A DNA stretch of 64,000 nucleotides from a virus (IMGVR_UViG_3300027895_000001:1-64000), one strand, 5' to 3'; shown: positions 3,212 through 61,812, counted from the stretch's first letter. The notes: generated by a model from the letters alone, not told the origin. A program made the numbers and translations.

Positions 3212-3377
3212 CGAACGAGACGACTCCGCACCCACGGCACTTTACCACCAGCCGATGCTCCAGCCGCTCGCGGTCGTCAGCGTCGAGCCGCATGATCTTC
3301 CACTGGGCGTCGCAGCGGTAGCACGGAGCGTCAAGCGGGACAGGATTGAGCGCGTTGTGAGGTCGAATGGTCATCAC
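3162..3377 (-). CDS. possible small zinc-ribbon protein
   Basis: CYRC...CRGC pairs. However, its 5' end overlaps the start of the divergent nuclease gene and its 3' end overlaps ORF 2078-3211, so it may be an antisense artefact. Confidence 0.3.
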   Translation of the reverse strand: MMTIRPHNALNPVPLDAPCYRCDAQWKIMRLDADDRERLEHRLVVKCRGCGVVSFATRPAATEPSSVAPLQ

Positions 3378-4401
3378 GGCATCGGATCTTCGGAACTACC
3401 AGAGTTGTCGCCGCCGCTGGCTGCTGGAGCGGTCGTGGCGCGTGGCCCGGTGGAGGCCGCAGCATCTCTTTCGTGCGTGCTTGCGTGAGGGAGTTTTTCA
3501 GCTATCAACAGGTTGCGAGATCGCCATTGTTCGAACCAACCAACGAACTCGGTTTTTATCGGAAGCTGCACGTCCGGGTTTGGACTTTGTGTCAGGCGAT
3601 CCATGGACAGTAGCGCAGGACTGGGCTGGGATGATATCGACGGTATTGACCGCACTATCTCGTCTAGTGCTGCTAACTGTTTCTCGTCCAAGTACGCTAC
3701 CTCTGATAGATGGATTATCATGGCTCCCCTCCACATGGATCGACGACTCCGGCACTCTGCACCGCTGGATCACTGCCTCGATGTGGAACGACGACGCGCT
3801 GGCGCGGGAGGCGCATGGCTGGCCGGTGATCGCCGACATGGTGATGCTCGACGCGCCGCTCCAACTCCACGTGGTCGAGATCGGCCAGCAGCGTGACGGC
3901 CGACGGTACTCCCCCTGGGCGCGGTGTTACCGTCACCCGATCATCGCAGGGCAGTTCCGCTTCCAGCGGCCCGACGGCAAGGGCGGATGGCGCAAGCTCT
4001 CCGGCGAGCAGTGGCGACCGTTGTGGTACGCCGACCAGACCAAGCCCGATCCCGAGGCGTGGTGCGACCTGATGGACGCCGACCACGTCACGCCTTCCCT
4101 TCTGCATCACATATCCATGTCGCAACCTTCGCCGCAGGCGTCACGCCGAGTACGTGCAGAGATAGCGCAATTGGCGTCAGAGATGCAAGCTGCTGCGACG
4201 CGGGCGACTCGATCGGCGGATGGGATGGCAGAGCCGATGGCGCGGGGCGCGTGTGATCCTATGGGAGGTCCGTGCCAGTGGCAAAACTGTTGCTTCGCTC
4301 CCGATCCCGACAAACTAGACATTGGCTCCCTCGGGTTGTATCAAATTCGACAGCTTCCTGAGACGACGCCGCTCGGCCTCGTGCGCTCGCTTGTGCGCTA
4401 G
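3367..4401 (+). CDS. PD-(D/E)XK nuclease, Cas4/RecB-like with Fe-S type cysteines
   Basis: N-terminal ITASDLRNYQSCRRRW is the typical start of Cas4-like nucleases, including the first Cys. C-terminal cysteine cluster CDPMGGPCQWQNCC. Confidence 0.6.
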   Translation: MVITASDLRNYQSCRRRWLLERSWRVARWRPQHLFRACLREGVFQLSTGCEIAIVRTNQRTRFLSEAARPGLDFVSGDPWTVAQDWAGMISTVLTALSRLVLLTVSRPSTLPLIDGLSWLPSTWIDDSGTLHRWITASMWNDDALAREAHGWPVIADMVMLDAPLQLHVVEIGQQRDGRRYSPWARCYRHPIIAGQFRFQRPDGKGGWRKLSGEQWRPLWYADQTKPDPEAWCDLMDADHVTPSLLHHISMSQPSPQASRRVRAEIAQLASEMQAAATRATRSADGMAEPMARGACDPMGGPCQWQNCCFAPDPDKLDIGSLGLYQIRQLPETTPLGLVRSLVR

Positions 4402-4932
4402 AACTGCCGCGTACTTTATTGGATCGGCTTGGAGCTTGGCCCAGTTTTCCTGATTCAACTTGGGATTGAGTTCCCTTCTCTGTCTCTCGTGTTCTCGCTT
4501 GCAGGTAAGACAGAATCGAGTTCCACAACTGAGACATGTATTTTCGAGTGTATAGGCGTGTCCTTGTGGACAGAAGGATAGCCGACTGCGAATCATCCCC
4601 GGAGACTGTCCTCGATGAACGTTTACTATGTGTTCTACCGACTCCAGATGATCTAGTCGAACGCATGGACGATTCCTGCAAAGGTGATCCAGTTCCAATG
4701 GAAAGGGAGGAAGATCGTTGTGTGCTACGAACCATGCTACTTCGTGACCGCGTACCGGACGTTTTATTCCGCCACCTATTGAGAGGTAAGAATATCCCTC
4801 CGAGTCTGGCTTGCCATCCAACGTCCAGCAACCATCGGTGACTATCAACTTTGCCCAGAACCGCTCCACAATGTTCGGGCTTGCTCGTAGCATATCCAAC
4901 AACCGTTGGCGAGTTTCTAAGGTTCTTCGCAT
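4315..4932 (-). CDS. HNH homing endonuclease
   Basis: HNH core DHLCRNRPCVRLDHLE plus a C-terminal CPQGH...CLSCGTRFCLTC zinc ribbon. GGAGGAGT RBS. Visibly AT-richer than the flanks. Confidence 0.85.
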   Translation of the reverse strand: MRRTLETRQRLLDMLRASPNIVERFWAKLIVTDGCWTLDGKPDSEGYSYLSIGGGIKRPVRGHEVAWFVAHNDLPPFPLELDHLCRNRPCVRLDHLESVEHIVNVHRGQSPGMIRSRLSFCPQGHAYTLENTCLSCGTRFCLTCKREHERQRRELNPKLNQENWAKLQADPIKYAAVLAHKRAHEAERRRLRKLSNLIQPEGANV

Positions 4933-4973
4933 ACTCCTCCAATATTACACGCAGACGAGCGTTCGTCGAAGGT

Positions 4974-5114
4974 TCAGGATTGTGCCGTAGCCAGCGCCAC
5001 ATGAGACTCTCCTTTCACTGACACCTCGTGCATGTCGGACCAGTTGTCCCCAGCGCAGCATTCCGCGTCGATCCACAGTCCCTCTGGCGCTATCGTGGGA
5101 TGTCGCAGGCTCAT
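4974..5114 (-). pseudogene. stranded native 3' end of the DNA polymerase gene (46-codon ORF, possibly still translated)
   Basis: Reads MSLRHPTIAPEGLWIDAECCAGDNWSDMHEV..., parallel to the polymerase C-terminus VHPTIAPDGLWIDVELNAGKNWAEMKEV (ends at 6032). GC-rich, unlike the flanking AT-rich genes. Its ATG overlaps the Lar-like stop (ATGA 5111-5114). Below the ORF-track length cutoff. Confidence 0.65.
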
Positions 5115-5536
5115 ACACCTTTGCACTCATTACACAACTCATTAGGTAGGATTACGTCGGCTCCACAGGCATCACAACTACCGTGACCAACTCTACGATT
5201 CCACCGCTCTATAAGTTGTGGTCTCCCATCATCCTTTAATGAATACTGCAAATTGGTTGACGCTGCACACATCGGGTTAGTGCACTCGATAAAGTTAGCT
5301 CCATCGTCAGCATCCTGCAGTTCAGCGCTGGAACCACAAAACGGGCAAGGCTTAAGTTCATCCATAGTGTTCTTCTTCTTCGGCACAAAAGTATGAGCCT
5401 TGCTGAAAGGCAAATGTGATATTCCTGCGTGCTCGTCCGTTGCTTCAGGATACCCACACCTCTCACATACAATAGATTTTCCATCCTTGGATAACTGGCC
5501 CTCAGTACAATAAGGCCAAGACTTTTTCATGCTCAT
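5111..5536 (-). CDS. Lar-family restriction-alleviation-domain protein with extra zinc ribbons
   Basis: KPCPFCGSSAELQ...FIECTNPMCAAS...LIERWNRR matches the Lar family pattern (CPFCG...C..C...WNRR). Start chosen at MSMKK (GGAGG 5 nt upstream, ATGA overlap with the HNH stop). Confidence 0.6.
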   Translation of the reverse strand: MSMKKSWPYCTEGQLSKDGKSIVCERCGYPEATDEHAGISHLPFSKAHTFVPKKKNTMDELKPCPFCGSSAELQDADDGANFIECTNPMCAASTNLQYSLKDDGRPQLIERWNRRVGHGSCDACGADVILPNELCNECKGV

Positions 5537-6063
5537 ACATGCCTCCACGTCTTGCGTCGTACGATACAACTAACGTTCATTCGATGGACCCCGAATATCT
5601 CAGCTAACTGAGTGTAAGTAAAGTCCCCAGTAGCGGCCATGCTACGCATCTTCAAAACTTTTCTCTCGTTTAACTTGGCATTGCCGTGCTTTGATCCCTT
5701 GTTATCGGACTTAGGTATACGCCCACGTCCTTTAGTCCAACAATCCCGCATGTTATCGCCATGTGTCCCAAGGAATAGATGGGCAGGATTGACGCAGGGA
5801 GGATTGTCACAAGAGTGCAATACCTCCATACCATCAGGTATATCTCCCTTAGTAAGCATCCAAGCTACTCTGTGAGCCAACTGAGCGGAATCCTCGTACC
5901 GGAAGCAGCCATAGAACTTATCAGGAGTCTGCGCTGATGTTTTATTGCCACGCCGCGCCGCCATCCACAACCAGCAGTCCCCCTTAGGCCCAAGTCCAGG
6001 GCTATTGTCTACCTTATCCCAGAACAGCACTTCAGGCGTTCGTGACTGCGACCATTGGGACAT
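5533..6063 (-). CDS. HNH homing endonuclease with C-terminal HTH-like tail
   Basis: HSCDNPPCVNPAHLFLGTHGDNMRD core. The tail YTQLAEIFGVHRMNVSCIVRRKTW looks like an HTH. AT-rich. The start overlaps the polymerase stop by 32 nt. Confidence 0.85.
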   Translation of the reverse strand: MSQWSQSRTPEVLFWDKVDNSPGLGPKGDCWLWMAARRGNKTSAQTPDKFYGCFRYEDSAQLAHRVAWMLTKGDIPDGMEVLHSCDNPPCVNPAHLFLGTHGDNMRDCWTKGRGRIPKSDNKGSKHGNAKLNERKVLKMRSMAATGDFTYTQLAEIFGVHRMNVSCIVRRKTWRHV

Positions 6064-8839
6064 TGATCTTAACCTCTTTCATCTCCGCCCAGTTCTTACC
6101 TGCGTTCAGTTCGACATCTATCCACAGGCCATCGGGAGCTATAGTCGGATGTACCAACACCTTACTAGGCTCAACAAGGACTGGGTAAACTTCCGCGACG
6201 TGTTGCTCCAACTCGTCCTCGCGAACAATAAATAACAAATTATCGTGAATATTATTACACAAGTTATATTTCGAGTCAAGTCCTTTATTGTGGAGCAATT
6301 TCATATGCTCTCGTATGTAGCCAAACGCAATGTTAGAGAGGTGATAGGAGATCGCTTCCTCCGCCTGATCCCCATGCGAGTAAGCAGCTTTCTTATAATC
6401 CCACCGGAAGACTTCATAGAACCTCCGCATGTGGCCGTATTCGGTGCGCTGATACTGCTGGTCATGCGCTAGTTGCTGCGCTCGCTTCTGCCACGTGAAT
6501 ATCTTGGGAAACACTTCCTCGTAATCGTCGAGGATGCTTTGCGCCTCCTTGATCGACTTAAAGAACTCCATGTAGCGTTCGAATAGGCCCTTGGCCTTGA
6601 GCCCGTTGCCGATCCCGAGCCCAGCATGTTTGATCTTGGAGTCGCGGATGTGTTTGTATTCCTCGTTCGACTTGAGCCATCGACAGCGCGCCTTGATCTC
6701 GTCGTCGGATTCGCGGACCAGATCCTGCGCCCGCCATAGCTTGAGAAAGTGGCCAGTCATGATGGAGTGCATGTCGATGCGCGCAAATCGGATATACGTC
6801 TCGTCCTCCGCGAGGAATCCGAGCGTTAGTACGTGGCACGACTTATAATCCCACTCCGCGAATAGGTAGCCGTTAGGCGCCTTAATCATACGGCGCGTGG
6901 CTCGGGCCAGCCGACCGTGCTTGGGGAAATTCTGTATGTTGGGATTGCGCGACGACAGTTGGCCGATGCCGGTGTCGAAGGTGAACGTAGTGTGGACGCA
7001 ACCGTCAGCGTGCGGGACGAACCCGTTGATATACGTCCCTCGCATCTTCCCCAGCTCGCGGTACTCGATCACGCGGAGGTAGAAGTCGTCGTCGGTGCGA
7101 TGCGCCAGTCTCACGAGTTCTTTCTTGGCCGTCGTGTCCTTGTCGTTGCCTTCGTCGTCTTGCTCGCGGGATTTGGGACGCTTGTGACCCTTAGCATCCA
7201 TGTATCGCTTGAGTTGGTCCGGCGAATTCGGATTGAAAGGCACGACACGACACCAGCGTGTAAGTCGCTCAGTGCATGGCTCGCCTGTCTCCCCGGAAAT
7301 GGCAGCAACTGAGAAAGATCGCTGCACCAATCCTGTAGTGTCTTTCGGCTTACGTATGTAACCGTAGTCATAGTTCCCTTTCTTCCCGCGCCGTGGCTCC
7401 AGTCCCAGCACTTCCTCCGGCACCCGGCGCTGCAACTCCGCGTCCAGCTCCTGTTGCGCCAAGTCGAACTCCCCGTCCAGCTTCAGCCGCTCGGCGTCGT
7501 CGACTGGGAGCCCGCGCCGCTCCATCGCCGCGAGGATCGGCCGCACCTGCTGCACCTGGCCCACGTACCCACCCACGCAGTCACCGCTGGCGTCGTAGGG
7601 GGAGTCGTAGATCCCGTCGCGCCGCAGCGCGTCGAGCAGGAACGTATACAGGCGCAGGGTCGCGTCCACGTCCACGCAGCCATAGAATTCGAGGTTGGTC
7701 GCCGCGAGGTGCTTCCACGGGAACGGGAACTGGACGAACTGCGCCGCGAACTGGAGGTGCGCGGGCAGGTCCGGCTGCCAGTGGTGGAACATCTGCAGGG
7801 TGTCGTGGACTACGCCGCGTGGTCGGAGGTCTAGTCCTTCTCGCTGGCCGCAGGCTTCTAGGACTTTGTTGTCGAAGAGCCACACATGATGTCCAACCTT
7901 CACATTGTTGCTGTGTAAGATTGACTCAGCGACCTCTCGATATCCTCCTTCCCAAGGGAAAGCGATACCTTCGCCTGTTCTAAGAGAGAACTGGATAAGC
8001 CGGATCCGAGTGTCGGTAAATCCGTCTCTAGCATCTTCATCGAGACTTGCAGATTCGTAAGTCTCGATATCGTAGCTGAAAGGGAGTCCGCTGTTGCCTT
8101 TAACTCGTAGCGAAAAAGATCGAGCCTCGTCAAGGCTAGGATGTAGCGAATATCTGAGCTGTCCATACATCTCACTCCTTTCAGGATCAATATTCCATAT
8201 CCACTCCCGGTCCCGTCCAGCAGCGACGTTGACCGCGCGCTGGAGGGTGCGGGCGAATACTCCCTGCAGGTGGGCCGCGCCACGGCGGATGAACGCGGGA
8301 TGGAATGTCGATACAGTCGGTATCTGATCCGGTCCCGGCAACACATACCCGCAGAGATGGCTCACTCCCCTAGCCTCTCCCGCCTCCCCCGTCAGCTCCC
8401 GCGTGGCCGTATCGCCAAGCGCCAGGATCGCCCGTGGCCGACGGTCGCGGATCGCGGCATCGAGGTTGGGCCGGCAGTGGGTGAGCGCCGACCACTCCCA
8501 CGGCGCGCCTGCGAGCCAGTTCTTGGCCGGGCGGCAGCGCAGGGTGTTCGTGATCGAGAATTGCTGGCGCGAGTAGCCCATCCGTTTGAAGGTGCGTTCG
8601 AGGACGGAGCCGCTGGGAGCGTAGGGGCGCAGGGGGAGTTGGTCGCGGGCCTCAAGCTCGCCGGATGCCTCTGCGACGATCATCACGCCCAGCGAGCCCG
8701 TGCCCTCGACGGCGGAGAAGTCGGTGCCCATAGAGTGACAGGGGCAGCCCTCGCAACTATTTGGTTTCTGGCGCACTGTCGTCCTCGATGAAGATCTCTG
8801 GGAAATCTCTACGAATGTGTGCCTCACCAAACGTGTCAA
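6032..8839 (-). CDS. family A DNA polymerase with N-terminal family-4 UDG-like domain and 3'-5' exonuclease region
   Basis: - UDG-like: CEGCPC, VMIVAEASGELE, FHPAFIRRG.
- Exo I-like: FSYDIETYES.
- Pol motifs: EWDYKSCHVLTLG (A-like), RDSKIKHAGLGIGNG (B-like), NNIHDNLLF (C-like).
- The start could lie downstream of 8839, since it overlaps ORF 8757-8963. Confidence 0.9.
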   Translation of the reverse strand: MTRLVRHTFVEISQRSSSRTTVRQKPNSCEGCPCHSMGTDFSAVEGTGSLGVMIVAEASGELEARDQLPLRPYAPSGSVLERTFKRMGYSRQQFSITNTLRCRPAKNWLAGAPWEWSALTHCRPNLDAAIRDRRPRAILALGDTATRELTGEAGEARGVSHLCGYVLPGPDQIPTVSTFHPAFIRRGAAHLQGVFARTLQRAVNVAAGRDREWIWNIDPERSEMYGQLRYSLHPSLDEARSFSLRVKGNSGLPFSYDIETYESASLDEDARDGFTDTRIRLIQFSLRTGEGIAFPWEGGYREVAESILHSNNVKVGHHVWLFDNKVLEACGQREGLDLRPRGVVHDTLQMFHHWQPDLPAHLQFAAQFVQFPFPWKHLAATNLEFYGCVDVDATLRLYTFLLDALRRDGIYDSPYDASGDCVGGYVGQVQQVRPILAAMERRGLPVDDAERLKLDGEFDLAQQELDAELQRRVPEEVLGLEPRRGKKGNYDYGYIRKPKDTTGLVQRSFSVAAISGETGEPCTERLTRWCRVVPFNPNSPDQLKRYMDAKGHKRPKSREQDDEGNDKDTTAKKELVRLAHRTDDDFYLRVIEYRELGKMRGTYINGFVPHADGCVHTTFTFDTGIGQLSSRNPNIQNFPKHGRLARATRRMIKAPNGYLFAEWDYKSCHVLTLGFLAEDETYIRFARIDMHSIMTGHFLKLWRAQDLVRESDDEIKARCRWLKSNEEYKHIRDSKIKHAGLGIGNGLKAKGLFERYMEFFKSIKEAQSILDDYEEVFPKIFTWQKRAQQLAHDQQYQRTEYGHMRRFYEVFRWDYKKAAYSHGDQAEEAISYHLSNIAFGYIREHMKLLHNKGLDSKYNLCNNIHDNLLFIVREDELEQHVAEVYPVLVEPSKVLVHPTIAPDGLWIDVELNAGKNWAEMKEVKINVPMVAVTNA

Positions 8840-8963
8840 TGAGGCGCTTCTTGACCGCAGGGTCGCGTCTGGCGTTCAGCACCGCCTGCCGCCGCGCCCA
8901 CGGCGTGGTCGTGCCGTAGGGGCCGATGATCTCAGGTTCCTTGGTGTCGTTGTCGTCACTCAT
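8757..8963 (-). CDS. hypothetical small acidic protein
   Basis: ATG 8963 overlaps the helicase stop (ATGA 8960-8963). 68 aa. Confidence 0.5.
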   Translation of the reverse strand: MSDDNDTKEPEIIGPYGTTTPWARRQAVLNARRDPAVKKRLIDTFGEAHIRRDFPEIFIEDDSAPETK

Positions 8964-10273
8964 AGCCACGGGGATACCCTCCTGTCCGTCGCGCATTGTG
9001 TCACGTAGCGTTCTCGCTGTCCCACGACTCTGAGTCCGCCGAGCGTCCGGCATCGGCTCATGGCGACGTAGAGCATCGCAGGCTGGCCGAAGAAGTGATC
9101 GCGGATGTCAATCTGCGCCCGGTCGAGCGAGATACCCTGCGACCGGTGCACCGTGGACGCATAGGCCAAGCGGACGGGCCAGTACTCTAGCTGGCCTTCT
9201 ACGAAGCGTCGTCTGTTAGGCATCCAGTGTGGCGACGGCAGCCATTCCCCGTGGCCGTTGGCGCGGTAGGCGGGCCATCCATCCGGCTTGCGCTTCTGTC
9301 CCACGTCGCGGATCACGCGCTCGACGCCTACCAGCTGGCCGTTGCGCACCAGCCGGACTTGCAGCGACGATCCGTACCACTCTTCGACGTGGCCTGTGTC
9401 TCCATTGGCGTACAACATGTCGCCCTCTTCGTCGTAAGAGTTCGACAGTAACATTACCAGTGCGCCCCGCTTGAGCGTCACCCGATCCGGCACCTGCTTC
9501 CATTCCCCCCGCTGCTTGCCCCAGCGGCGATTGCCGAGGGAGAACGTCGCGCCGGAAAGCCGATCCAGCGCCATCCCGTTATACCGATCCACCTGATCGT
9601 TCTTGGAGACGATGGTCGTGCCGTCGAACTGGATGTCGAGGGCAGAGTGCCACTCAAGGCCCTCCCGCGACAGCAACTCGGCGGCACCACCGCCATCTCC
9701 CACCCGTGTCAGGTTCAGCGCTTCGAGGAAGGGGCCTGCGTCCTGCCGCCACACCTTGGTGAGCCGCGTCGTGTGGGCGTCGAAGCGGTGCCACTCGTCG
9801 GACTCGAATGCCCATCGGGCCTTCACTGGCGGCAGTTGCGCGAAGTCTCCGACCAGCGTAAGGCCCAGTGGTGGCGCGGGGGACAGGAACGAATTGCACT
9901 CCAGCGCGGCGCGGACGAGGATCGACAGTTGATCGCCGTCCATCATCGACACCTCGTCGATCACGATCCGGCGGTAGTCGTCGCGCAGCTCCTTGAGCCG
10001 CCGGACGAGCGAGCCCTGGAGGTAGGCGTCGCGCAGGGAGTCGGTGTCGAAAAAACGCAAAAGCGCGTTCAGGGTAGTTGTGCCCAAATTAATTGCCGCA
10101 ATTCCTGTAGTTGCTGCAAGTATGCCAGACGTAGGGTCAGCAGCGATTCGCTCTCGCCACATCCACGTTTTCCCCGTTCCAGCAGCGCCCGAGGTAAATT
10201 CACAAGGCACTGTAGCTTCCTGAACGTTCACATCGTTTATGGTCTCGCTAGTTATATAAATATCGTCAGTCAT
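8960..10273 (-). CDS. PIF1/RecD-like superfamily 1 DNA helicase
   Basis: Walker A SGAAGTGKT, Walker B RRIVIDEVSM, and C-terminal YASTVHRSQGISLD (UvrD_C_2-like). The first ~70 codons (10060-10273) are visibly AT-richer than the rest. Confidence 0.85.
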   Translation of the reverse strand: MTDDIYITSETINDVNVQEATVPCEFTSGAAGTGKTWMWRERIAADPTSGILAATTGIAAINLGTTTLNALLRFFDTDSLRDAYLQGSLVRRLKELRDDYRRIVIDEVSMMDGDQLSILVRAALECNSFLSPAPPLGLTLVGDFAQLPPVKARWAFESDEWHRFDAHTTRLTKVWRQDAGPFLEALNLTRVGDGGGAAELLSREGLEWHSALDIQFDGTTIVSKNDQVDRYNGMALDRLSGATFSLGNRRWGKQRGEWKQVPDRVTLKRGALVMLLSNSYDEEGDMLYANGDTGHVEEWYGSSLQVRLVRNGQLVGVERVIRDVGQKRKPDGWPAYRANGHGEWLPSPHWMPNRRRFVEGQLEYWPVRLAYASTVHRSQGISLDRAQIDIRDHFFGQPAMLYVAMSRCRTLGGLRVVGQRERYVTQCATDRRVSPWL

Positions 10274-10857
10274 TGCGCTTTCCTTCGAGCGATGCCTGCT
10301 CTACGCCCTTCACTTATCATCATGCCCAATGCCGCTCCATTAGCACGAGCGGGGAATATCTTCATATAACGTAGAACGTCCTGACTTTCAGTCTTCTTGA
10401 CAATCAGATAGGGCATCAGTCGCAGCAATACCTTCTCAATTTCTGATCGCTTACTTATGTACAGAGAATTACAATCATCAGGACGAGCCGTGTATACGGC
10501 AGACTTTATCCCATTGGAAGCAAAGAAGGCTTGTATCCTTCGTAGTACAGCCAGACCTCGTGCATGGGACTGAGCGATACTAAAGTGAAATCCATATCCA
10601 CCACTAGTATTACCTCGCTTGATGATTATGGTTCCTTCACCATCGAAGAATCCCGCAACGTAGGCCCACGAGCCAGCGACGCCACAGGTAAACTCGCAGG
10701 GCACCTCAGGTTCCGATACCGCTGCTTCCACTTCGCCTTCCACGTCCAGTGATCGTAGGTCGCAGGAGTCGTCAGGCCTGCCCGCTTGCGCCGCGCCCAC
10801 TCCCGCGTTTCCTTCGCATGACATATCCGGCATATCCAGACGCGGCGTGTCTTCCAT
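10270..10857 (-). CDS. LAGLIDADG homing endonuclease fused in frame to a remnant of the helicase N-terminus
   Basis: LAGLIDADG motif YVAGFFDGEGT, preceded by EVPCEFTCGVAGS, which duplicates helicase residues VPCEFTSGAAGT. The stop overlaps the helicase ATG (ATGA 10270-10273). AAGGAG lies 9 nt before ATG 10857. Confidence 0.8.
   Translation of the reverse strand: MEDTPRLDMPDMSCEGNAGVGAAQAGRPDDSCDLRSLDVEGEVEAAVSEPEVPCEFTCGVAGSWAYVAGFFDGEGTIIIKRGNTSGGYGFHFSIAQSHARGLAVLRRIQAFFASNGIKSAVYTARPDDCNSLYISKRSEIEKVLLRLMPYLIVKKTESQDVLRYMKIFPARANGAALGMMISEGRRAGIARRKAQ
10669..10746 (-). pseudogene. stranded native 5' fragment of the helicase gene (up to the interrupted Walker A)
   Basis: DVEGEVEAAVSEPEVPCEFTCGVAGS aligns with helicase DVNVQEATVPCEFTSGAAGT. 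It is GC-rich, whereas the functional copy is AT-rich. Confidence 0.6.
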
Positions 10858-15962: not shown

Positions 15963-16318
15963 TATTCTCCTCTCAAGATCAAACCTTTATTGTCTACGTG
16001 TCCCCTCTCTGAAGCCGCCCGCGATACCGCGTCCTTCTCCGGCGTGTGATGCGACTCTACAAGCTCGACCTCAATCATAGGGATATATAGCTGATATTCC
16101 ATCAACCCAAATGTGATTCCCCAATAGGGATCGAAATGCAGGTCTATTATGGTGACTATCTCTCCTCGCAGGCTAGGCTTCGAGGAGCCATAAGGCTGAG
16201 CGTTATAGTCGCTGATGATTCGTACCTTACGACCCTTAACGATTGCTTTCGCTTGATCGTAGGCGGTCGTAGCCTCAGTGAACAAAAGACGTACCATGTC
16301 GAATGGTTCACGATTCAT
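15962..16318 (-). CDS. hypothetical protein
   Basis: 118-aa track ORF. Its start overlaps the upstream stop (ATGA 16315-16318), and its own stop overlaps the next gene's ATG by 1 nt. Confidence 0.55.
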   Translation of the reverse strand: MNREPFDMVRLLFTEATTAYDQAKAIVKGRKVRIISDYNAQPYGSSKPSLRGEIVTIIDLHFDPYWGITFGLMEYQLYIPMIEVELVESHHTPEKDAVSRAASERGHVDNKGLILRGE

Positions 16319-16845
16319 AGTCGTACCTTTCCACCCCAGCGCGTCTTTATAACTCGCTTCTCCCGCCTTAGCCTATCCCACATACGCAGCGCCGACTCTC
16401 GCCGGATCTCAAATCCCTCTCCTATAATCCTTCGCCCCTGTTGTGCTGGAATAGTCACAGCATCTTCTACCGTCCATCCCCTTTTCAAGCGAGAAGCTAG
16501 AGTGCAGTTATCAATACCACAGCGCTGCGCCCATTCTGCTTGAGTCAAAGTCTCGCCATTGTGAGTAATCCATACATTGTCTCTACGATTGCGATGCTGC
16601 TGAATGTCAGTAGCCCAACGGCAATTACTAGGTTCGTAGTTGCCGTCATTGTTTGGATAGCGATCAATCGTCGTACCTGCTGGTCGCTTGCCCATATCAG
16701 CCAAGAACTGAAAAAAAGTATGCCATCGCTGCGCGACCGTGATTCCACGTCCTCCATAGTTGTGATAGTTCGGATGCTTGGGGTTGTAGCAACGCTGCAT
16801 CATCTGTGCCCAACTCTTATACTCTCTTGTCGCTGACCATCTCAC
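16315..16845 (-). CDS. phage homing-endonuclease-associated DNA-binding protein (family commonly annotated HNH endonuclease)
   Basis: YKSWAQMMQRCYNPKHPNYHNYGGRGITVAQRW...IDRYPNNDGNYEPSNCRWAT...AEWAQRCGI...RLKRGWTVEDA pattern. GTG 16845 with AGGAG 10 nt upstream is preferred over the track start at 16953, which would overlap the nuclease gene by 137 nt. Confidence 0.55.
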   Translation of the reverse strand: MRWSATREYKSWAQMMQRCYNPKHPNYHNYGGRGITVAQRWHTFFQFLADMGKRPAGTTIDRYPNNDGNYEPSNCRWATDIQQHRNRRDNVWITHNGETLTQAEWAQRCGIDNCTLASRLKRGWTVEDAVTIPAQQGRRIIGEGFEIRRESALRMWDRLRREKRVIKTRWGGKVRL

Positions 16846-18439
16846 TTGCTTCTTTCTCCTGAATGTGATTTGGCACACGAATTTTATACTTGCTTGATTC
16901 GAGTGGCGACTTTTGAATATCCGATCCCCCATAACATATTGGGACAAAAGCACATTCAGATGGATAAGAACATGCTCTCCGACTCATTGGAAAATGGATA
17001 TTCAGTAAATGTCGTTTCTCTCCTTCATCTTGTGCCTGTTCACATGCTACCACACTCTCAGCAACTTTTGTCTCGATACTTTCAACTTGTTCCACAAAAT
17101 CACGTAATTGGTCGTCCTGGCGGTAGACGGTCAAGGGCGCCGGGAACACCGCGTCGAGCGGGTGCGTCGTGGTGTAGCCGAGGGACTGGGCGCGGGACTT
17201 CCATCCCAGCTCGCGAGGTTCCGCGCCGGTCGTCGAGTCGTAGGCTGACATCGCCATCTGAGAGTCGTCGAGCGCGTCGATCCACCGCCGGATCGCGTCG
17301 GGGCCGTCCTCCCACACCGGACGGGCGCGCCAGTTCTGCCACGCCAGCTTCGAAGTGGATGATCCGTCGTCCTTCAGGTAATCATTAGACCAGCATTCGT
17401 CGCCTACGGTATAGGAGGATTGGCCGCGCGAGGGAGTAGAGGTTGCGACGTACTTGCGGATCAGGTGCGAGCGTTGCGACCAGACGCGGATGCCGAACCG
17501 CGCCGAGAGATCCTTGTCCTCCCAGCGGCCTCCCTTCAGCAGGTACTCGTAGCGAATGCCGAGGATGCGGGGCGAGGCGGGGAGGGCCGCGAGATACTTC
17601 TGCGTCGCAATCGGAATCTCAGCCAGATCCGGATTGTGCTTGTCTGTCCCATGTAACACCGTCCACCATTGGCCGAGTCGCCGCTCGACCTCCACTCCCT
17701 CGCTGAGTCCCTGCATGTCGTGCTCGGCGTCGCGGGCCTTGCGGATGTCCCACGTGGCGGCAGTCTTGTAGGAGAGGAGGTAGAGGGAGTTGTCGCTCCT
17801 GCTGCGCAGGAGGGCGTCAGGGCGGGACATGAACCGTAGTTGCCACGGTTGCATGATCTCTTCCTGATCGTCGTGCAACCACGATGCCAGCTCCCAGTCC
17901 CCTTCCCGCTCGACCTCCAGCACCTCGAACTCCTCCAGCAGCGGACGCAACCGACGACGGGCGTAGGCGCGCACCATCGCCTCGACCAGCGCCGACTGCT
18001 CAGCGTAGAGCCATTCGTCGTACTCCGCAGCGGCGTTGCGCTGGCGTCCCAGCAGTTCCGTCATGGCAGGGTCGTTGGCGTCCATGCCGAGGTCGCGCGC
18101 CGTCGCCAGCACCTGCGCGTCGAAGCCTGCGTCTCTGGGGTCGATCACGGCGGACATCGCAGCCTGCTCGGTCGTGTCGAGCGCGAGGGCGGAGCGGTGA
18201 GTGGAGAAGTCGGCGAGAGCCGCAGCGACGGCCACACTCTCGTCTATGATCCCAATGCCGTCCATGGTCTGCCGCAACAGAGATTCCAGTCCCTTGTGGA
18301 CCGCCCCACCGACGCATAGCGGGAGTGGCTTCTTCGGCGGTTCAAGGCCCATCCCAGCCTCGTGGTAGCGGAGCCAGCGCTCGCGGGGGCAGTGCTGGTA
18401 GGTCTCGGTGCGGGATCGGTCGGTCCATATAGTTTTCAT
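16817..18439 (-). CDS. PD-(D/E)XK nuclease, Cas4/RecB-like with Fe-S type cysteines
   Basis: N-terminal TETYQHCPRERWL, RPDALL...LYLLSYKT (D...xK core), and C-terminal CSYPSECAFVPIC. ATG 18439 overlaps the upstream stop (ATGA). Confidence 0.8.
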   Translation of the reverse strand: MKTIWTDRSRTETYQHCPRERWLRYHEAGMGLEPPKKPLPLCVGGAVHKGLESLLRQTMDGIGIIDESVAVAAALADFSTHRSALALDTTEQAAMSAVIDPRDAGFDAQVLATARDLGMDANDPAMTELLGRQRNAAAEYDEWLYAEQSALVEAMVRAYARRRLRPLLEEFEVLEVEREGDWELASWLHDDQEEIMQPWQLRFMSRPDALLRSRSDNSLYLLSYKTAATWDIRKARDAEHDMQGLSEGVEVERRLGQWWTVLHGTDKHNPDLAEIPIATQKYLAALPASPRILGIRYEYLLKGGRWEDKDLSARFGIRVWSQRSHLIRKYVATSTPSRGQSSYTVGDECWSNDYLKDDGSSTSKLAWQNWRARPVWEDGPDAIRRWIDALDDSQMAMSAYDSTTGAEPRELGWKSRAQSLGYTTTHPLDAVFPAPLTVYRQDDQLRDFVEQVESIETKVAESVVACEQAQDEGEKRHLLNIHFPMSRRACSYPSECAFVPICYGGSDIQKSPLESSKYKIRVPNHIQEKEASEMVSDKRV

Positions 18440-26517: not shown

Positions 26518-27227
26518 CCACTCCCCGCGCCCACAAGGCTCGCACCCTCGCCGCCGGCTACGCGCGCCTCGGCGTCCAGCCGAACTCCGTCCTCCTCGCG
26601 CCGAAGGTGACGCACCTCCTCTCGTCCATGCGCGGCGGCATCCCCAAAGCCATCGAATACCTGCGCGCCTCCGCCGAACCCGCCGCGCGCGCCTTCATCC
26701 TCATGTACGACGACCCCTCCCTGTCGCTGAAGATCCGCGACGCGCTCCCACTGGAAGCGTTCTGCCTCGCCGCCAAGCTCGACCCGACCGACCTGCTCGC
26801 GCCGATCACCCGCGTCGCCCACCTGCACGGTGCGATGCTGGGCGCGGTCAAGGCCGCCGAGCGCCATCCGGAGATCGTCGACGCCTCCCTCGCAGCGGCG
26901 GTCACGCCCGACGGAGTCGAGGACCGTATGGCCAACCTCAAGCACATGGGCTACCTGCCATCTCCGCGTGGCTCCTCGGTCAACGTTCAGGTGAACGCGT
27001 CCGCTACGGCCGCCGCCGCTGCGAAGTCCGACGCCGCGTCCCTGTCGACGCCGGAGGAGACGATCCGCCGGATCATCGAGCGGCGCCAGCAGGTAGCGTC
27101 ACTCACGCCAGCCGCCACGCAGCCCGCGCTCCCCGCCCCCGTGCCGGAGTCGGTGCCAGCGTTCATGCCGCGTGAGGCGCGGGAGCCGGTGACGGTGGAC
27201 GCGGACTACGAGGAGGCCGACGAATGA
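26514..27227 (+). CDS. candidate terminase small subunit (by position only)
   Basis: 237 aa, immediately upstream of the HNH + TerL pair; acidic C-terminus. No motif recognised. Confidence 0.4.
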   Translation: MTTPRAHKARTLAAGYARLGVQPNSVLLAPKVTHLLSSMRGGIPKAIEYLRASAEPAARAFILMYDDPSLSLKIRDALPLEAFCLAAKLDPTDLLAPITRVAHLHGAMLGAVKAAERHPEIVDASLAAAVTPDGVEDRMANLKHMGYLPSPRGSSVNVQVNASATAAAAAKSDAASLSTPEETIRRIIERRQQVASLTPAATQPALPAPVPESVPAFMPREAREPVTVDADYEEADE

Positions 27228-27652
27228 CGCTGGAGGAACGTTTGTGGTCGAAGGTATCTCCCGAACCAATGTCAGGCTGTTGGTTGTGGACCGGAGCTTT
27301 ATCAAGTGGATATGCAAGTCTAGGGTCGGGAGCTTACGCACATCGGGTATATTACGAACTCACGCGAGGAAAGATACCAGACGGTTTGGAATTGGATCAT
27401 AAATGTCGAGTACCTTGTTGTGTTAATCCCGATCACCTTGAACCAGTAACTCACCGTGAAAATATGCGGCGAGGTAATTTTGAGAAAGTTCGTCAACGAT
27501 TCGTCAAGTTTCGTGCCATTGGCAAATGCAAGCGTGGTCATGTTTTTGCAGAAGTAGGCAGGATGAACGCCAAGGGCAGGCTGGGGATGTGTCGAGTTTG
27601 TTACCTAATAAGTCGAGAGAAAAGCCGTGTATCACGCAGACAAAATCGCTAG
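27224..27652 (+). CDS. HNH homing endonuclease (terminase-associated position)
   Basis: LELDHKCRVPCCVNPDHLEPVTHRENMRR core plus a KCKRGH...CRVC zinc ribbon. ATGA overlap with the upstream stop. AT-rich. Confidence 0.85.
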   Translation: MTLEERLWSKVSPEPMSGCWLWTGALSSGYASLGSGAYAHRVYYELTRGKIPDGLELDHKCRVPCCVNPDHLEPVTHRENMRRGNFEKVRQRFVKFRAIGKCKRGHVFAEVGRMNAKGRLGMCRVCYLISREKSRVSRRQNR

Positions 27653-34199: not shown

Positions 34200-35033
34200 A
34201 TGGCCCAGTCATATGCCGAATTTCTAGCTGAGAATGGTGCGACACCAGACGAGATTAAGGTGCTGGATATGCCCGCCGCGCGCAAGGCGTTCGACAAGCA
34301 GCAGGCTCTCGTGGCCGCCGCGTCTGAGGAGCGCCAGAAGGCCGCCGACCTGATCCGCAAGAATCAGGAGTGGGCGACACAGGTCGAGACGCAGAACCAG
34401 ACTTACCTGAAGGAGCGCGACTCGGCGCTGGTCAAATCCGCTGCCGACGCGGCCCGCCTGACCAAGATGCAGGAACTCGGCCTGATCGAAGTCGCCGAGC
34501 GCATGGAGCCAGGCTCTACCACGCCGAAGCCCAACGAGACTCCCGCGTTCGACGCCTCCAAATACGTCGACCGTGACACCCTGATGCAGGTGGCCGAGCG
34601 TGAGGGCGACGCCATCGCTACCGCGCAGGACATCGCGTGGGAGCATGCCCAACTCTTCGGCAACGACCCCACCAAGCGCCTCAACTTCCGTGACCTCCGC
34701 AAGGAGGCCGTGGCGCGCAAGGTTCCCGTCGAGTCCCTGTGGATGGAACGCTATGGCGTCCAAGCCGCCCGCGACAAGCGCGCCGCCGACGACCGTGCGG
34801 CTCACGAGAAGAAGATCGCCGACGAGGCCATCACGCGCTACAAGTCCGAGCATCCCGAAACCAATCCCCTGATGGCGGTGCCGACGATCTCCCGCACGCC
34901 GTTCACGGGCAAGATTCCTTCCGCCACTGGCAGCGATATCCGCCAGCCGTGGCTGAAGTCCGACGCCGAGCGTGAGAACGCCCGCGTCAGTAAAGTTCTG
35001 CCGAAGTTAGAGAGTCTGGGCGCAGTCAACTAA
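34200..35033 (+). CDS. candidate scaffolding protein
   Basis: 277 aa, charged and helical (coiled-coil-like), with GGAGG RBS, upstream of the capsid gene. Confidence 0.55.
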   Translation: MAQSYAEFLAENGATPDEIKVLDMPAARKAFDKQQALVAAASEERQKAADLIRKNQEWATQVETQNQTYLKERDSALVKSAADAARLTKMQELGLIEVAERMEPGSTTPKPNETPAFDASKYVDRDTLMQVAEREGDAIATAQDIAWEHAQLFGNDPTKRLNFRDLRKEAVARKVPVESLWMERYGVQAARDKRAADDRAAHEKKIADEAITRYKSEHPETNPLMAVPTISRTPFTGKIPSATGSDIRQPWLKSDAERENARVSKVLPKLESLGAVN

Positions 35034-35581
35034 TGCGAAAGAACGAACAACGCGATTGGAAACTACCCGCTTTTGGAGAATTCTGTCCATCGCCTATTGA
35101 TTGGGCCAGAATGGCCGCTTATATCGACGGCGAAGGTAGCGTTCTTATCAACACACAGAAGCGTGGCAATGCTAGGGCTGTGGGGTTCTATCTCCGCGTT
35201 ACTGTAGCTAACACAGATGTTCGTTTGCCTGCTTGGTTGAAGGAAACCTTCGGCGGGACATATAACTTGGCTGATACTGAGGCTTATTACGCCAAGCGTA
35301 ACTGGAAGCCCGCCTATCATTGGGGAACCAGTGCACATAGGGCTGCATGGATACTTTATAACTGTTTGCCTTACTTCATTATGAAGCGAGAACAAGCAGA
35401 ACTAGGTATCACCCTTCAGGAGAATTTAAGTAGGTATCGTTTTCGAGGCAAGGGAGCAGGTCAAGTCCCTTCTCAAATCTGTGAAGAACGACGAGAGTTG
35501 AAGCGACGTTTGTTGGTGATGAAAGCGCGTGGCAGAATTCTAGAACCCGCACAAGAGAAACGAATTCAGGAGGTCTCCTAA
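35033..35581 (+). CDS. LAGLIDADG homing endonuclease (free-standing)
   Basis: MAAYIDGEGS motif. TAATG junction with the scaffold gene. AT-rich. Confidence 0.85.
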   Translation: MRKNEQRDWKLPAFGEFCPSPIDWARMAAYIDGEGSVLINTQKRGNARAVGFYLRVTVANTDVRLPAWLKETFGGTYNLADTEAYYAKRNWKPAYHWGTSAHRAAWILYNCLPYFIMKREQAELGITLQENLSRYRFRGKGAGQVPSQICEERRELKRRLLVMKARGRILEPAQEKRIQEVS

Positions 35582-60100: not shown

Positions 60101-61351
60101 TATACGAACGACGCCATCGGGCCAATCGCGGCGGCGATCATCACCGGGGAGTGGGACGGCGGGGATGTGCGCGCAGGGGAGGTGTGGGGCGACGCGTGGC
60201 TCGATTCTAATCCCTCAGCGGCGACAGGCGTGAGCGTGACTCCAATGAGCGGAGGCGTGCCGCTGGCCGCAACGACGGTAATTGCGCCGTCGGCGTCGCG
60301 AACGCAGACGCAGATATCGCTGGGCGGTGGCGTCCTCAGCGACTTCCTCGGCCTCCAGATCGCATGGACGGACAACTTCACCGCGCAAGGCGCAGCGACT
60401 CGGATCAATATATGGCAGCCCTCATTTATTCAGAAGCCAGAGACGATCACGGATCGCTACACGGACTGGTACGACGGCGGAACGGAATCGGCGAAGTATA
60501 TCCAGGGATTCCTACTCCACGCGGATACGTTCAACGCGCTACGAGGATTGCAGGTACGAGACAGCGACACTCTCACGCTGCATCCGTTCACGCCTGTCGT
60601 GCAGCACAACGGCGAGAGCATCATCGCGTATTCGTTCGTGACGCCGTTCATCGCGCACACCGTGCGGCTGGAGCCGTCGCTGGTCGGCGGGCCAATATCG
60701 ACGGAGATCCTGAGCGTAGTCAACAATCCCATATTCAACACGCAGGTTGTGGCGACGGTCGCCAACAGCGACGGATTCGCATTAGGTGCGGAGGCCACGA
60801 TCACTGAAGTAGCGCCATATGATGGCACGTTCCCGATTACCAGCGTGGGGCCGGGGTATATCGGGTGGACCGATCCCAGCCTTACCGAGTCCTACCCTAC
60901 CGAGGAAGACGGCCTCATATCCGCCATCTCGATGGGTGTACAGGTGCCGTGGCGGTTCTTTGGCGTCGAGTGGGTGTTCGAGTCGACGCCGGAGGCTGCG
61001 GAGACGTGGCAGACGCAGGGCACAGCGTTCGGCCTGCTCGGGTATATGCACGTGAAGCAGGTGAGCGCGTGCTACGCCGCGACGGAGCCGGTGACGTTGA
61101 CGGTGACCTGCTACGGTGGCCAGCAGCCCATGCCGATCACACTCCCGTCGACGGGCGGCGTCATGGCGAAGCTCACGTTCATACTGACAGCGAACAAGGG
61201 CGTTATATATTTCTTTTCTGCTACGTCTACAGCACCATTCCAACTGTTCCTAGAAAATTGGGAAATTTGGGTTGGTGGCTGGAGTCGTACAGATAATTAT
61301 CTCAGATACAGATCCCTTGGCGGGGCTACGGGAGATCAAGCGCGCATATGA
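57149..61351 (+). CDS. large virion/tail protein (1400 aa)
   Basis: GTG 57149 with GGAGG 6 nt upstream. The track start at 56924 would overlap the previous gene by 236 nt. The last ~50 codons are AT-richer. Confidence 0.7.
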   Translation: MADSGRNYTRPNEGFRFRYGGMKLNAPPDALTPGNKYVYGRNIRVVNDSAIETRPGLASFYPTNSHSVTDLRAFAALNTDNDPVIVAVSNDNNVWTQAGVVGALSGSAGFPGAAMIPFRPAQSPNPWMYIANGNDYQKFSAPVAGVVTQQKVGIAEPQTAPNAASTTTLYNIFSPNPSYTHAGVAGAVSNTARVTDTVQSVFADPGVPTTGFATLGVSTSQVYTRQMALSISDTGVLVQDVYPAQPVAIGILAVYYFTGTTGRCIVVPANLGAGPGNEGQSLYEQNLLGSLRRGALIKFSGGSETCIVWSVTEGPDGTVCLETSTTGTHTSAETFTAPQAIQVNLPASSFTVGQSITSPTVTFALSGAGIGTETSTAGLGNPFVYSTDSFQEADYLHFSINVSVLTALNEAKLLFDVGDGSFTQNLYYYTVRVSDIEAGVQNTLTQLGAAQLVDQRATIDEETAAASGNQLSTSSSAQTTPGDLQWAEIIFPISALTRVGNDQTKTLQNVNAVQFLVNAASLAGTAFSYPINIQLGPVTIWGGYSPDVGQSGAPYLYRVRPRSSLTGAKGNPSPETRYGVNPRREQVTLALPSAAYDGQIDTWDVFRYGGSVTSWRWIGQSPTTSTTFIDNYSDEAALAGEELEFDNYEPWPSIDVPLMNGLAAPVTGFVASIWVPTPNNVLRWLPGTEVRIGGTNVYTLRSRPTLLATGRGINYYQFEFVENAGYILTTNAAVYEPNLARQLLPYMWGPDAEGTVFAVGDPLRPGTISFAKNYAPDSAPDSYDIEITPPTEPLLGGELLDGLSFVASTERWWALYPQPSNPTQRYSYIQQPLPRGLAAPWGHCTDGKTIWWWAKDAIWDSQKGSLTDADLYNLFPHDGVAGVNVTYNGYEVLAPDYAYAANFRLAHCNGYLYATYVDSTGNWRCLVCDTRTAAWSVDIYNNGSPPSAFYHVEQQGGTLLTPGLSTYPVLVAGGSTGGVFIQSPYTNDAIGPIAAAIITGEWDGGDVRAGEVWGDAWLDSNPSAATGVSVTPMSGGVPLAATTVIAPSASRTQTQISLGGGVLSDFLGLQIAWTDNFTAQGAATRINIWQPSFIQKPETITDRYTDWYDGGTESAKYIQGFLLHADTFNALRGLQVRDSDTLTLHPFTPVVQHNGESIIAYSFVTPFIAHTVRLEPSLVGGPISTEILSVVNNPIFNTQVVATVANSDGFALGAEATITEVAPYDGTFPITSVGPGYIGWTDPSLTESYPTEEDGLISAISMGVQVPWRFFGVEWVFESTPEAAETWQTQGTAFGLLGYMHVKQVSACYAATEPVTLTVTCYGGQQPMPITLPSTGGVMAKLTFILTANKGVIYFFSATSTAPFQLFLENWEIWVGGWSRTDNYLRYRSLGGATGDQARI

Positions 61352-61812
61352 ATATCACAGAGAAGAAGCGTAAATACAATCTAGCCTATCTTGAGAGTCA
61401 CCGTGATGCTATAAGAGTAAGTAAGCGAGAGTGGAGGAAAGAACGCTACGCCGCTGACCCTGATTATCTCATGCGTTATTACTGGCGCAATCGAGACAGA
61501 GTGTTAGCCAAATCGAAATTGAAACTTGCACTCATAAAACGGGAGACCATAGAGGCATATGGCGGACATTGCGCGTGTTGTGGAGAAGAAAATGTTGAAT
61601 TCTTGTCTCTTGATCATATTAACAATGACGGCAACGAGCATCGTAAGACAGTGTGTTCTGGCTCTGGGTTCTACATAAAACTCAAGAACGCTGGCTTCCC
61701 CAAAGGGCAATTACAAGTGTTGTGCTTCAATTGCAATATGGCTAAGGGGATATACGGACAATGCCCACATGTGTTAGTGATACAAGAACGATTGAATCTC
61801 GTTAGCATCTGA
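61348..61812 (+). CDS. HNH homing endonuclease
   Basis: CACCG...LSLDHINNDGNEHRK...LCFNCNMAKG. ATGA overlap with the upstream stop. AT-rich. Confidence 0.85.
   Translation: MNITEKKRKYNLAYLESHRDAIRVSKREWRKERYAADPDYLMRYYWRNRDRVLAKSKLKLALIKRETIEAYGGHCACCGEENVEFLSLDHINNDGNEHRKTVCSGSGFYIKLKNAGFPKGQLQVLCFNCNMAKGIYGQCPHVLVIQERLNLVSI

Follow-up and report, generated by a model that had tools for sequence, protein, structure and literature searches.

How does a phage DNA polymerase gene that is intact to its stop codon come to be followed by a second copy of its own 3' end? This question is raised by IMGVR_UViG_3300027895_000001:1-64000, a viral stretch of 64,000 nucleotides that was analysed as a whole and is hereafter referred to as the window. 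Between the polymerase gene and the second copy of its end lie two small genes, one for an HNH homing endonuclease (HNH1) and one for a Lar-like zinc-ribbon protein. A preliminary description of this DNA had explained the arrangement by a foreign cassette of roughly 2.3 kb that replaced the resident polymerase domain. Here, we compared the locus with related sequences, and the comparison points to a shorter exchange: a mobile unit of HNH1, which includes the last 90 codons of a polymerase gene, probably homed into the resident polymerase gene and stranded its native end. The features of the locus are the following.

6032..8839, minus strand: chimeric, intact DNA polymerase gene of 935 codons, with a family-4 uracil-DNA glycosylase (UDG), a 3'-5' exonuclease and a family A polymerase (Pfam UDG and DNA_pol_A).
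6300..6311, minus strand: upstream recombination breakpoint, between codons 843 and 846, placed by informative sites, by the codon alignment and by the end of the high-scoring segment pair with the relative L028.
6032..6304, minus strand: apparently imported polymerase tail, from motif C to the stop, 90 codons (~270 bp).
6236..6292, minus strand: motif C tract of 57 nucleotides (nt), codons 850-868, KGLDSKYNLCNNIHDN, common to three HNH1-linked alleles.
5533..6063, minus strand: HNH1, free-standing HNH homing-endonuclease gene, with an HNH_3 nuclease and a C-terminal helix-turn-helix (Pfam, PHROGs).
5111..5536, minus strand: Lar-like zinc-ribbon gene (Lar_restr_allev), a variable cargo of the cassette.
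4974..5108, minus strand: stranded native polymerase 3' end (the remnant), the last 43 codons and the stop, LRHPTIAP...ATAQS, collinear with the polymerase 3' end of L028.
4315..4932, minus strand: HNH2, second free-standing HNH endonuclease gene (phrog_826, E 2e-34; the Pfam match is weak).
3367..4401, plus strand: convergent conserved gene orf344, a flank marker that directly follows the polymerase in endonuclease-free relatives.

The limits that the preliminary description gave for the polymerase end, the HNH gene and the Lar-like gene were correct, and so were those of the 46-codon minus-strand open reading frame (ORF) at 5114-4974. This ORF reads MSLRHPTIAPEGLWIDAECCAGDNWSDMHEVSVKGESHVALATAQS and it reaches 5114 through an ATG that the junction itself created. 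Its resemblance to the polymerase C-terminus, pointed out in the same description, is far above chance. A local nucleotide alignment of 5023-5103 on the minus strand with 6072-6152, which has no meaningful gaps, scores 49, while 300 shuffles gave 19.2 +/- 2.2 with a maximum of 26, and BLASTP finds 20/31 identities (E=1e-13). When the window is compared with itself by tblastx, this gene-end duplicate and the one at the helicase gene described below stand out by bit score among the matches listed, for which E-values are pooled. The "last ~40 native codons" of the preliminary description can be counted as 43 codons and a stop, and the overlap of the remnant ATG with the Lar-like stop (ATGA) is present in the sequence, so that translation of the remnant through this overlap is possible. 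The remnant contains a DAEC motif and a VKGESH..A tail, which are also found in close relatives, e.g. P0014; it has no evident function.

In a repeat search, the remnant and the polymerase tail form an 81-nt pair (family D1) in the same orientation, 1049 nt apart. Two such copies could have arisen by an intragenomic tandem duplication of the polymerase 3' end that later diverged, the endonuclease being unrelated to it. However, the copies are just 70% identical and each is nearer to sequences of other genomes; the remnant is 78-80% identical to the tails of L001-L003 at the nucleotide level, a gap that is modest since tails are the part of the gene that varies most across the family. In other contigs, moreover, HNH1 accompanies the upstream copy, whose base composition is different, and ~49 codons have been lost from between the breakpoint and the remnant. 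Such a duplication has hardly any probability.

The extent of the exchange can be determined along the polymerase gene. In the preliminary description, the whole polymerase domain (6032-7385) was swapped together with the HNH and Lar-like genes at the boundary between the exonuclease and polymerase domains. The drop in GC content at ~7385-7220 would agree with such a swap, and so would the shift of the best-matching relative along the gene, which is a mosaic whose closest relative switches every few hundred bases. However, GC content at third codon positions (GC3) is patchy overall, with low values at codons 200-310, 480-540 and 820-935, and the step at ~7385 is merely a local dip at codons ~480-540, a hypervariable linker in which relatives hardly align. 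Sliding GC3 recovers to 0.85-0.88 by codons 560-600. The mean values are 0.72 for codons 1-845, 0.74 for codons 541-845 and 0.54 for codons 846-935, and they are 0.525 in HNH1, 0.43 in the Lar-like gene and 0.66 in the remnant. Of the polymerase, then, no more than the last 90 codons are AT-richer, as HNH1 and the Lar-like gene are, and not the whole C-terminal half as in the preliminary description, whose claims on composition were partly right overall. Besides the tail, two low-GC3 patches lie within the polymerase on the minus strand, at 7900-8240 (codons ~200-310) and at 7220-7400 (codons 480-540).

The two halves of the polymerase also share their relatives. The exonuclease half (codons 22-480) and the main polymerase domain (codons 541-845) have the same close relatives, with identities of 0.78-0.91, and codons 541-845 are 0.90-0.91 identical to P0002 and P0004. 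When the separate ancestry proposed for the halves was examined, the same neighbours and equal GC3 were found, which is the outcome on which the preliminary description itself had been prepared to abandon the idea. The window is 96-97% identical at the nucleotide level to L003 over codons ~796-844, and ~91% to L002 and L016 in the same codon alignment; from codon 845/846 (window ~6305), identity to all three drops to ~50%, while the HNH-bearing L021 holds 73-79% throughout the codon comparison. Informative sites among the window, L003 and L021 are L003-like rather than L021-like at a ratio of 24:0 through codon 843 and of 21:84 after it (Fisher p=5e-14). An import of the entire polymerase domain is refuted by these sites, by the L003 identity, by the common relatives of both halves and by the collinearity of L028, which reaches window 6300; we give it practically no probability. 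Codons 808-845 form a block of invariant amino acid sequence (protein-level conservation is 100% in many relatives), and the breakpoint falls at the 3' edge of this block. Codons 1 to ~845 of the polymerase thus appear resident, and codons 846-935 imported.

The imported tail has an amino acid identity of at most 0.63 to each of 59 aligned full-length homologues. Its best match of all is with the HNH-linked tails of L021 and L022 (68/88, 0.77), and the endonuclease gene is physically joined to the 3' part of the polymerase whose tail is most like other HNH1-linked tails. In the family as a whole, no part of the gene varies more than the tail, whose mean identity among close relatives is 0.67 versus 0.82.

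The order of genes before the exchange is preserved in L028. BLASTN aligns the window with L028 in three collinear blocks, from the polymerase through orf344.

Block 1: window 8897-6300, L028 3091-5670.
Block 2: window 5102-4474, L028 5819-6459.
Block 3: window 4311-3181, L028 6499-7653.

Between the first two blocks, the alignment skips exactly window 5103-6299, as well as L028 5671-5818 (148 nt, ~49 codons). Because of these two gaps, a tract of ~1.2 kb appears to have replaced ~49 native codons, and since L028 is collinear with the window, the ancestral order would be polymerase-HNH2-orf344. The foreign tract (~5109-6305) can be described as composed of 90 polymerase codons, HNH1 and the Lar-like gene. 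The polymerase 3' end was replaced in the window and the old end moved downstream. The cassette of the preliminary description is therefore retained in its essence, as an HNH gene and a Lar-like gene that brought their own polymerase 3' end and displaced the native one; its size of 2.3 kb and its border at 7385 are not. Relatives without the HNH1/Lar cassette, for which that description had suggested a search, were seen in L028, L004-L007 and L015. The downstream junction, GGTGTATGAGC / CTGCGACATCC, shows no long homology.

HNH2 sits between the native polymerase stop and orf344, which its 3' end overlaps by 87 nt. Its closest homologue (79%) is on L028 at the same position, between the polymerase and the convergent orf344. 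In L004-L007 and L015, which lack HNH2, the polymerase stop is closely followed by the convergent end of orf344. HNH2 is probably older than the cassette.

HNH1, whose ATG lies 32 nt inside the polymerase tail, has the sequence characteristics of a homing endonuclease. Pfam HNH_3 matches it with an E-value of 9e-15, the H, C, D and N columns of the motif are invariant among four homologues, and PHROGs HNH endonuclease families match both HNH1 and HNH2. A DNA-binding domain is indicated by weak Sigma70_r4 and helix-turn-helix matches at residues 132-170 and by phrog_517 (helix-turn-helix) at residues 121-170. Its cluster representative, P0121, is 99% identical. The closest homologues of HNH1, 72% identical in L021-L023 and 63% in L020, are found on short contigs, overlapping a polymerase 3' end and directly behind it, and the start inside the polymerase tail (..KINVPMV..) is alike in the window and L021. 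Presence is sporadic: HNH1 was found behind the polymerase in the window and in L020-L023 and was absent from the other polymerase loci examined. No endonuclease or remnant was found behind the polymerase in relatives with the most similar or the most divergent tails (P0019, P0025, P0009, P0017 and P0002). A search of IMG/VR with HNH1 and the Lar-like gene returned two distant HNH matches and zero Lar matches, alignment of HNH1 with metagenome contigs gave pattern matches of which none codes for a relative, and a PDB sequence search with HNH1 gave no match. In L021, at 355-500, the polymerase frame lacks the usual stop and reads on for ~49 codons across the HNH gene, which is in a different frame, so that one stretch of DNA encodes both the polymerase tail and the HNH N-terminus. 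An intein or group I intron was considered and rejected for HNH1, as the polymerase ends with its own stop before HNH1 and intein domains are missing; no Rfam intron search was made.

The Lar-like gene is assigned by its family profile (PF14354, 47.8 bits with a cutoff of 28.6, E 1.7e-12; phrog_599), and L020 and L021 lack it. Both of its borders carry an 11/12-nt direct repeat (CAKGCTCATACA on the plus strand; repeat family D10):

5106-5117 and 5528-5539, no strand assigned: the two copies of the direct repeat.

Repeats of this size are common by chance in the region, so the position alone is suggestive. It hints that the Lar-like gene may have come in on its own, between the stop of HNH1 and the remnant, and not together with HNH1.

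The three HNH1-linked alleles (window, L021 and L020) have the motif C tract in common. In this tract (LCNNIHD) they are mutual best matches, with 75-79% nucleotide identity, while endonuclease-free alleles reach at most 67%. Before codon ~850, each of them resembles a different relative: the window L003 (0.90), L021 the pair L026/L007 (0.88), and L020 L004 (0.68), and their identity to one another before the tract is 0.51-0.75. The switch into the common tract occurs at codons ~845-850 in all three. The signature of the linked alleles is TGT AAT AAT RTT CAC GAT ART TT, and that of the naive, endonuclease-free alleles is TGC AAC AAC GTN CAC GAY TCN CT; an exact scan for the signature 23-mer gave 4 metagenome matches, all in unrelated low-GC contigs, and 0 viral matches. 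Because the same conversion boundary is found in three lineages, the replacement of the gene end would be recurrent and initiated by the endonuclease, which suggests recurrent homing with a carried gene end that is probably resistant to cleavage. We infer that the motif C DNA of naive alleles is the putative target of HNH1 and that the carried variant would resist it.

The tract also holds the best sigma-70-like promoter candidate of the region:

6279-6251, minus strand: TTGACT-17-(TGT)AATAAT, i.e. TTGACT-17-TGTAATAAT, scoring 10/12.

Promoter-like sites in the region are not more numerous than expected by chance. L021 and L020 nevertheless share the extended -10, which the naive alleles do not have; that this site drives HNH1 is a speculative possibility.

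The anatomy of the locus, its two junctions, the linkage of the tail to HNH1 and the ancestral order being established by these comparisons, the event can be reconstructed as follows. During a co-infection, the resident polymerase gene, then followed by HNH2 and orf344 as in L028, would have been cut in or near its motif C DNA. Strand invasion of the donor by the upstream end would have taken place in the invariant block that immediately precedes motif C, where resolution was homologous, and repair synthesis would have copied the donor polymerase tail, HNH1 and the Lar-like gene. The downstream end would then have been joined without long homology, by a non-homologous or microhomology-mediated reaction, at native codon ~894/895. 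The outcome would be an intact chimeric polymerase, with ~49 native codons lost and the last 43 and the stop left behind; the motif C DNA of this chimera is unlike that of endonuclease-free alleles and presumably withstands HNH1. Homing of a free-standing endonuclease by double-strand-break repair is the best-supported pathway, although cleavage by HNH1, the position of its target, the resistance of the tail and the repair pathway are what we infer from the sequence patterns. Because the genes 3' of the polymerase differ between relatives, a recipient would often have no homology to the donor beyond the endonuclease, and this missing downstream homology is a plausible reason for the non-homologous join.

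Several observations weigh against homing of HNH1 with a carried gene end. The high variability of the tail throughout the family would weaken any argument based on divergence alone. No donor closer than ~72-79% at the nucleotide level was found, and the direction and timing of the exchange are judged by composition and collinearity. Among 27 loci, the window is alone in having a second significant copy of the tail, and L021 has HNH1 with neither the Lar-like gene nor a remnant. The remnant is just 78-80% identical to the closest tails, though the block before the breakpoint is 96-97% identical to L003; because of this difference, the native tail would come from a lineage other than that of L003. 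Finally, the nuclease activity of HNH1, its target and the resistance are predictions.

A mirror image of the locus is found 4 kb away, at the neighbouring helicase gene.

8960..10273, minus strand: PIF1-like helicase gene (Pfam).
10050..10273, minus strand: apparently imported helicase 5' end, ~74 codons, with AT-rich third positions.
10270..10857, minus strand: LAGLIDADG endonuclease ORF, which starts with the native helicase 5' end.
10669..10857, minus strand: the first 63 native helicase codons, stranded, which reach to the Walker A 'CGVAGS' and continue in frame into LAGLIDADG.
10270..10668, minus strand: LAGLIDADG endonuclease domain (Pfam LAGLIDADG_1 and LAGLIDADG_3), with a stop that overlaps the helicase ATG.

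The fusion point reads ..VPCEFTCGVAGS / WAYVAGFFDGEG.., where relatives have CGVAGSGKT. The helicase remnant matches L001 at 33/36 nt over a conserved stretch and matches the helicase of the window by BLASTP at 11/17 residues (E 1e-5). Helicase codons 1 to ~74 are 62-68% identical to relatives at the nucleotide level, and from codon ~75 (window ~10050) identity with L001, L002 and L004 is 84-89%. An endonuclease, a replacement gene end and a stranded native end are found together twice within 6 kb, at both ends of the helicase-polymerase pair. An intein was rejected for the LAGLIDADG ORF, in which the N- and C-terminal splicing blocks are missing and which has its own stop.

The second case bears on whether the polymerase locus was made by the assembler, which might have joined two related phages at conserved sequence. 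The window does come from a metagenome contig, and its upstream junction lies within a conserved block. However, two false joins would be required, repeats at the 5109-5114 junction are too short to deceive an assembler, the independent contig L020 has an HNH gene together with a remnant, and the design recurs at the helicase. A chimera of this origin is very unlikely. Other low-GC islands with candidate endonuclease genes in the window are listed below.

27224-27652, plus strand: clear HNH_3 (E 1e-15).
35033-35581, plus strand: LAGLIDADG-like motif IDGEGS, no Pfam match.
61348-61812, plus strand: candidate endonuclease gene.
16315-16953, minus strand: candidate endonuclease gene.

Homing with a carried gene end has been demonstrated experimentally for the WHO elements of Torulaspora and Lachancea yeasts (Coughlan et al. 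2020, eLife, PMC7282813). As in these elements, the endonuclease gene of the window moves with the 3' end of its target, the gene becomes a functional chimera, the old end is pushed downstream, identity changes sharply at the boundary, and endonuclease genes are clustered behind the gene. The systems differ in that HNH1 is a small protein of HNH_3 and helix-turn-helix, whereas the yeast protein is an intein-derived LAGLIDADG/zinc-finger protein; in that the phage case involves co-infection and a DNA polymerase, and the yeast case meiosis and an aldolase; and in that the remnant does not always accompany the phage element, for which cleavage and resistance are predicted.

How strictly can the parallel be drawn? 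If HNH1 were a WHO-type element in the full sense, the remnant would be a working downstream homology arm inherited with HNH1, and repeated homing would build clusters of endonucleases. The order new tail, HNH1 (Lar), old tail, HNH2 would agree with this, with the newer unit nearest the gene as in WHO clusters (PMC7282813). The downstream genes vary between relatives, so that the polymerase tail would be the sole reliable downstream homology, and in L020 a remnant also stands directly behind the HNH gene, the HNH ORF being fused in frame into a ~22-codon polymerase remnant GPSLAEMEEVAVG.. (GPSLAEMEEV...). However, the junctions differ, lying before LRHPTIAP with the Lar-like gene between in the window and at GPSLAEMEEV with a fusion to HNH in L020. 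Furthermore, L021-L023 have no remnant behind HNH, a second tail occurs in 1/27 loci, and the remnant is no nearer to an HNH1-linked tail (69% to L021) than to those of endonuclease-free relatives. HNH2 of L028, moreover, is a plain intergenic insertion. The displaced fragment, then, was not found to be a constant part of the element, and this strict form is unlikely. Somewhat less unlikely, though still doubtful, is a further proposal, in which HNH1 and the tail would be an autonomous phage element of the WHO type. In it, the synonymous changes of the 57-nt tract would both render the polymerase immune to HNH1 and form the extended -10 promoter (TTGAC-17-TGTAATAAT), from which the endonuclease would be expressed within the polymerase coding sequence; stranded ends would serve as homology arms, and HNH2, HNH1 and the LAGLIDADG cassette would keep rewriting the ends of replication genes in this phage family.

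A gene-end duplication at atp6 of Allomyces was reportedly described by Paquin and co-workers in 1994. In the mitochondria of Endoconidiophora resinifera, C-terminal duplications of atp6 and cob lie beside homing-endonuclease ORFs (PMC6279837). In these mitochondrial cases, as in the window, an intact essential gene is followed by a partial copy of its C-terminal part, and endonuclease ORFs separate the two; the mitochondrial cases concern, however, an organelle and LAGLIDADG or GIY-YIG proteins that are often degenerate, while both endonuclease ORFs of the phage locus are intact.

Among phages, co-conversion of flanking sequence is a general property of free-standing endonucleases, and the double-strand-break repair pathway has been reviewed (PMC2988022). 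As in the intronless homing of T4-like phages, a free-standing endonuclease stands beside a conserved gene, the break in an endonuclease-free allele is repaired from the donor, and flanking coding sequence is co-converted. In the cases of that review both junctions are homologous and no stranded gene-end duplicate is described (the word stem 'duplicat' is absent), whereas in the window the downstream junction is non-homologous and a remnant is left. Phage genes split by endonucleases, namely nrdA of Aeh1 by mobE, gene 60 of T4 by mobA and gene 43 of phage 25 by seg (PMC2988022), are similar in that the endonuclease gene has entered, at a conserved site, the coding sequence of a gene for replication or nucleotide metabolism; these split genes yield two polypeptides, while the polymerase gene of the window is in one piece and the cassette supplies its complete replacement end. 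In ICP1 phages (Barth et al. 2023, PMC10448857), endonuclease genes coincide, as in the window, with recombination boundaries between related phages, but that is a study of mosaicism in populations and a term search of the paper returned no carried gene ends or remnants. In the literature searched, no phage was described in which a replacement gene end is brought in and the native end is stranded, which is not proof of absence. Endonucleases that carry a gene end are thus known from yeast and mitochondria, and a phage description was not found.

The polymerase has more than 100 full-length homologues, with identities of 49-81% among those listed; the contigs that hold them, ~57-66 kb long, belong to uncultured phages in metagenomes of soil, sediment and freshwater. 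Among cultured phages, megablast of 4000-9000 against phage records found no relatives, and tblastn matches had at most 27% identity. Seven relatives (P0011, P0045, P0047, P0068, P0089, P0099 and P0104) have insertions of 267-350 residues in the polymerase, mostly starting with Cys, at codons ~387, 629-633 and 738, two of them with intein or LAGLIDADG Pfam matches; true inteins of relatives thus occupy positions other than those of the cassettes in the window. The polymerase gene is a hotspot for selfish elements across the family. Relatives of the polymerase (L037-L039) are on contigs binned with metagenome-assembled genomes of Terracidiphilus (Acidobacteriota) and Solirubrobacterales, and a fragment of the exonuclease region, 61% identical, is in a 2.5-Mb Acidobacteriota contig; these contigs are a weak hint at the host.

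For annotation, short ORFs that copy the end of a neighbouring gene would be useful markers of past endonuclease invasion, while GC steps within a gene are unreliable markers of cassette borders. The locus provides a base-resolved example of how a free-standing homing endonuclease may enter an essential phage gene within its coding part and, by means of a replacement end, leave it neither split nor inactivated, and it links the intronless homing of phages to the logic of yeast WHO elements and to mitochondrial gene-end duplications. The predicted target of HNH1 is the motif C DNA of endonuclease-free alleles, and homing at this site with a carried gene end would account for the variability and mosaicism of the polymerase tail, which exceed those of the rest of the gene in this phage family.

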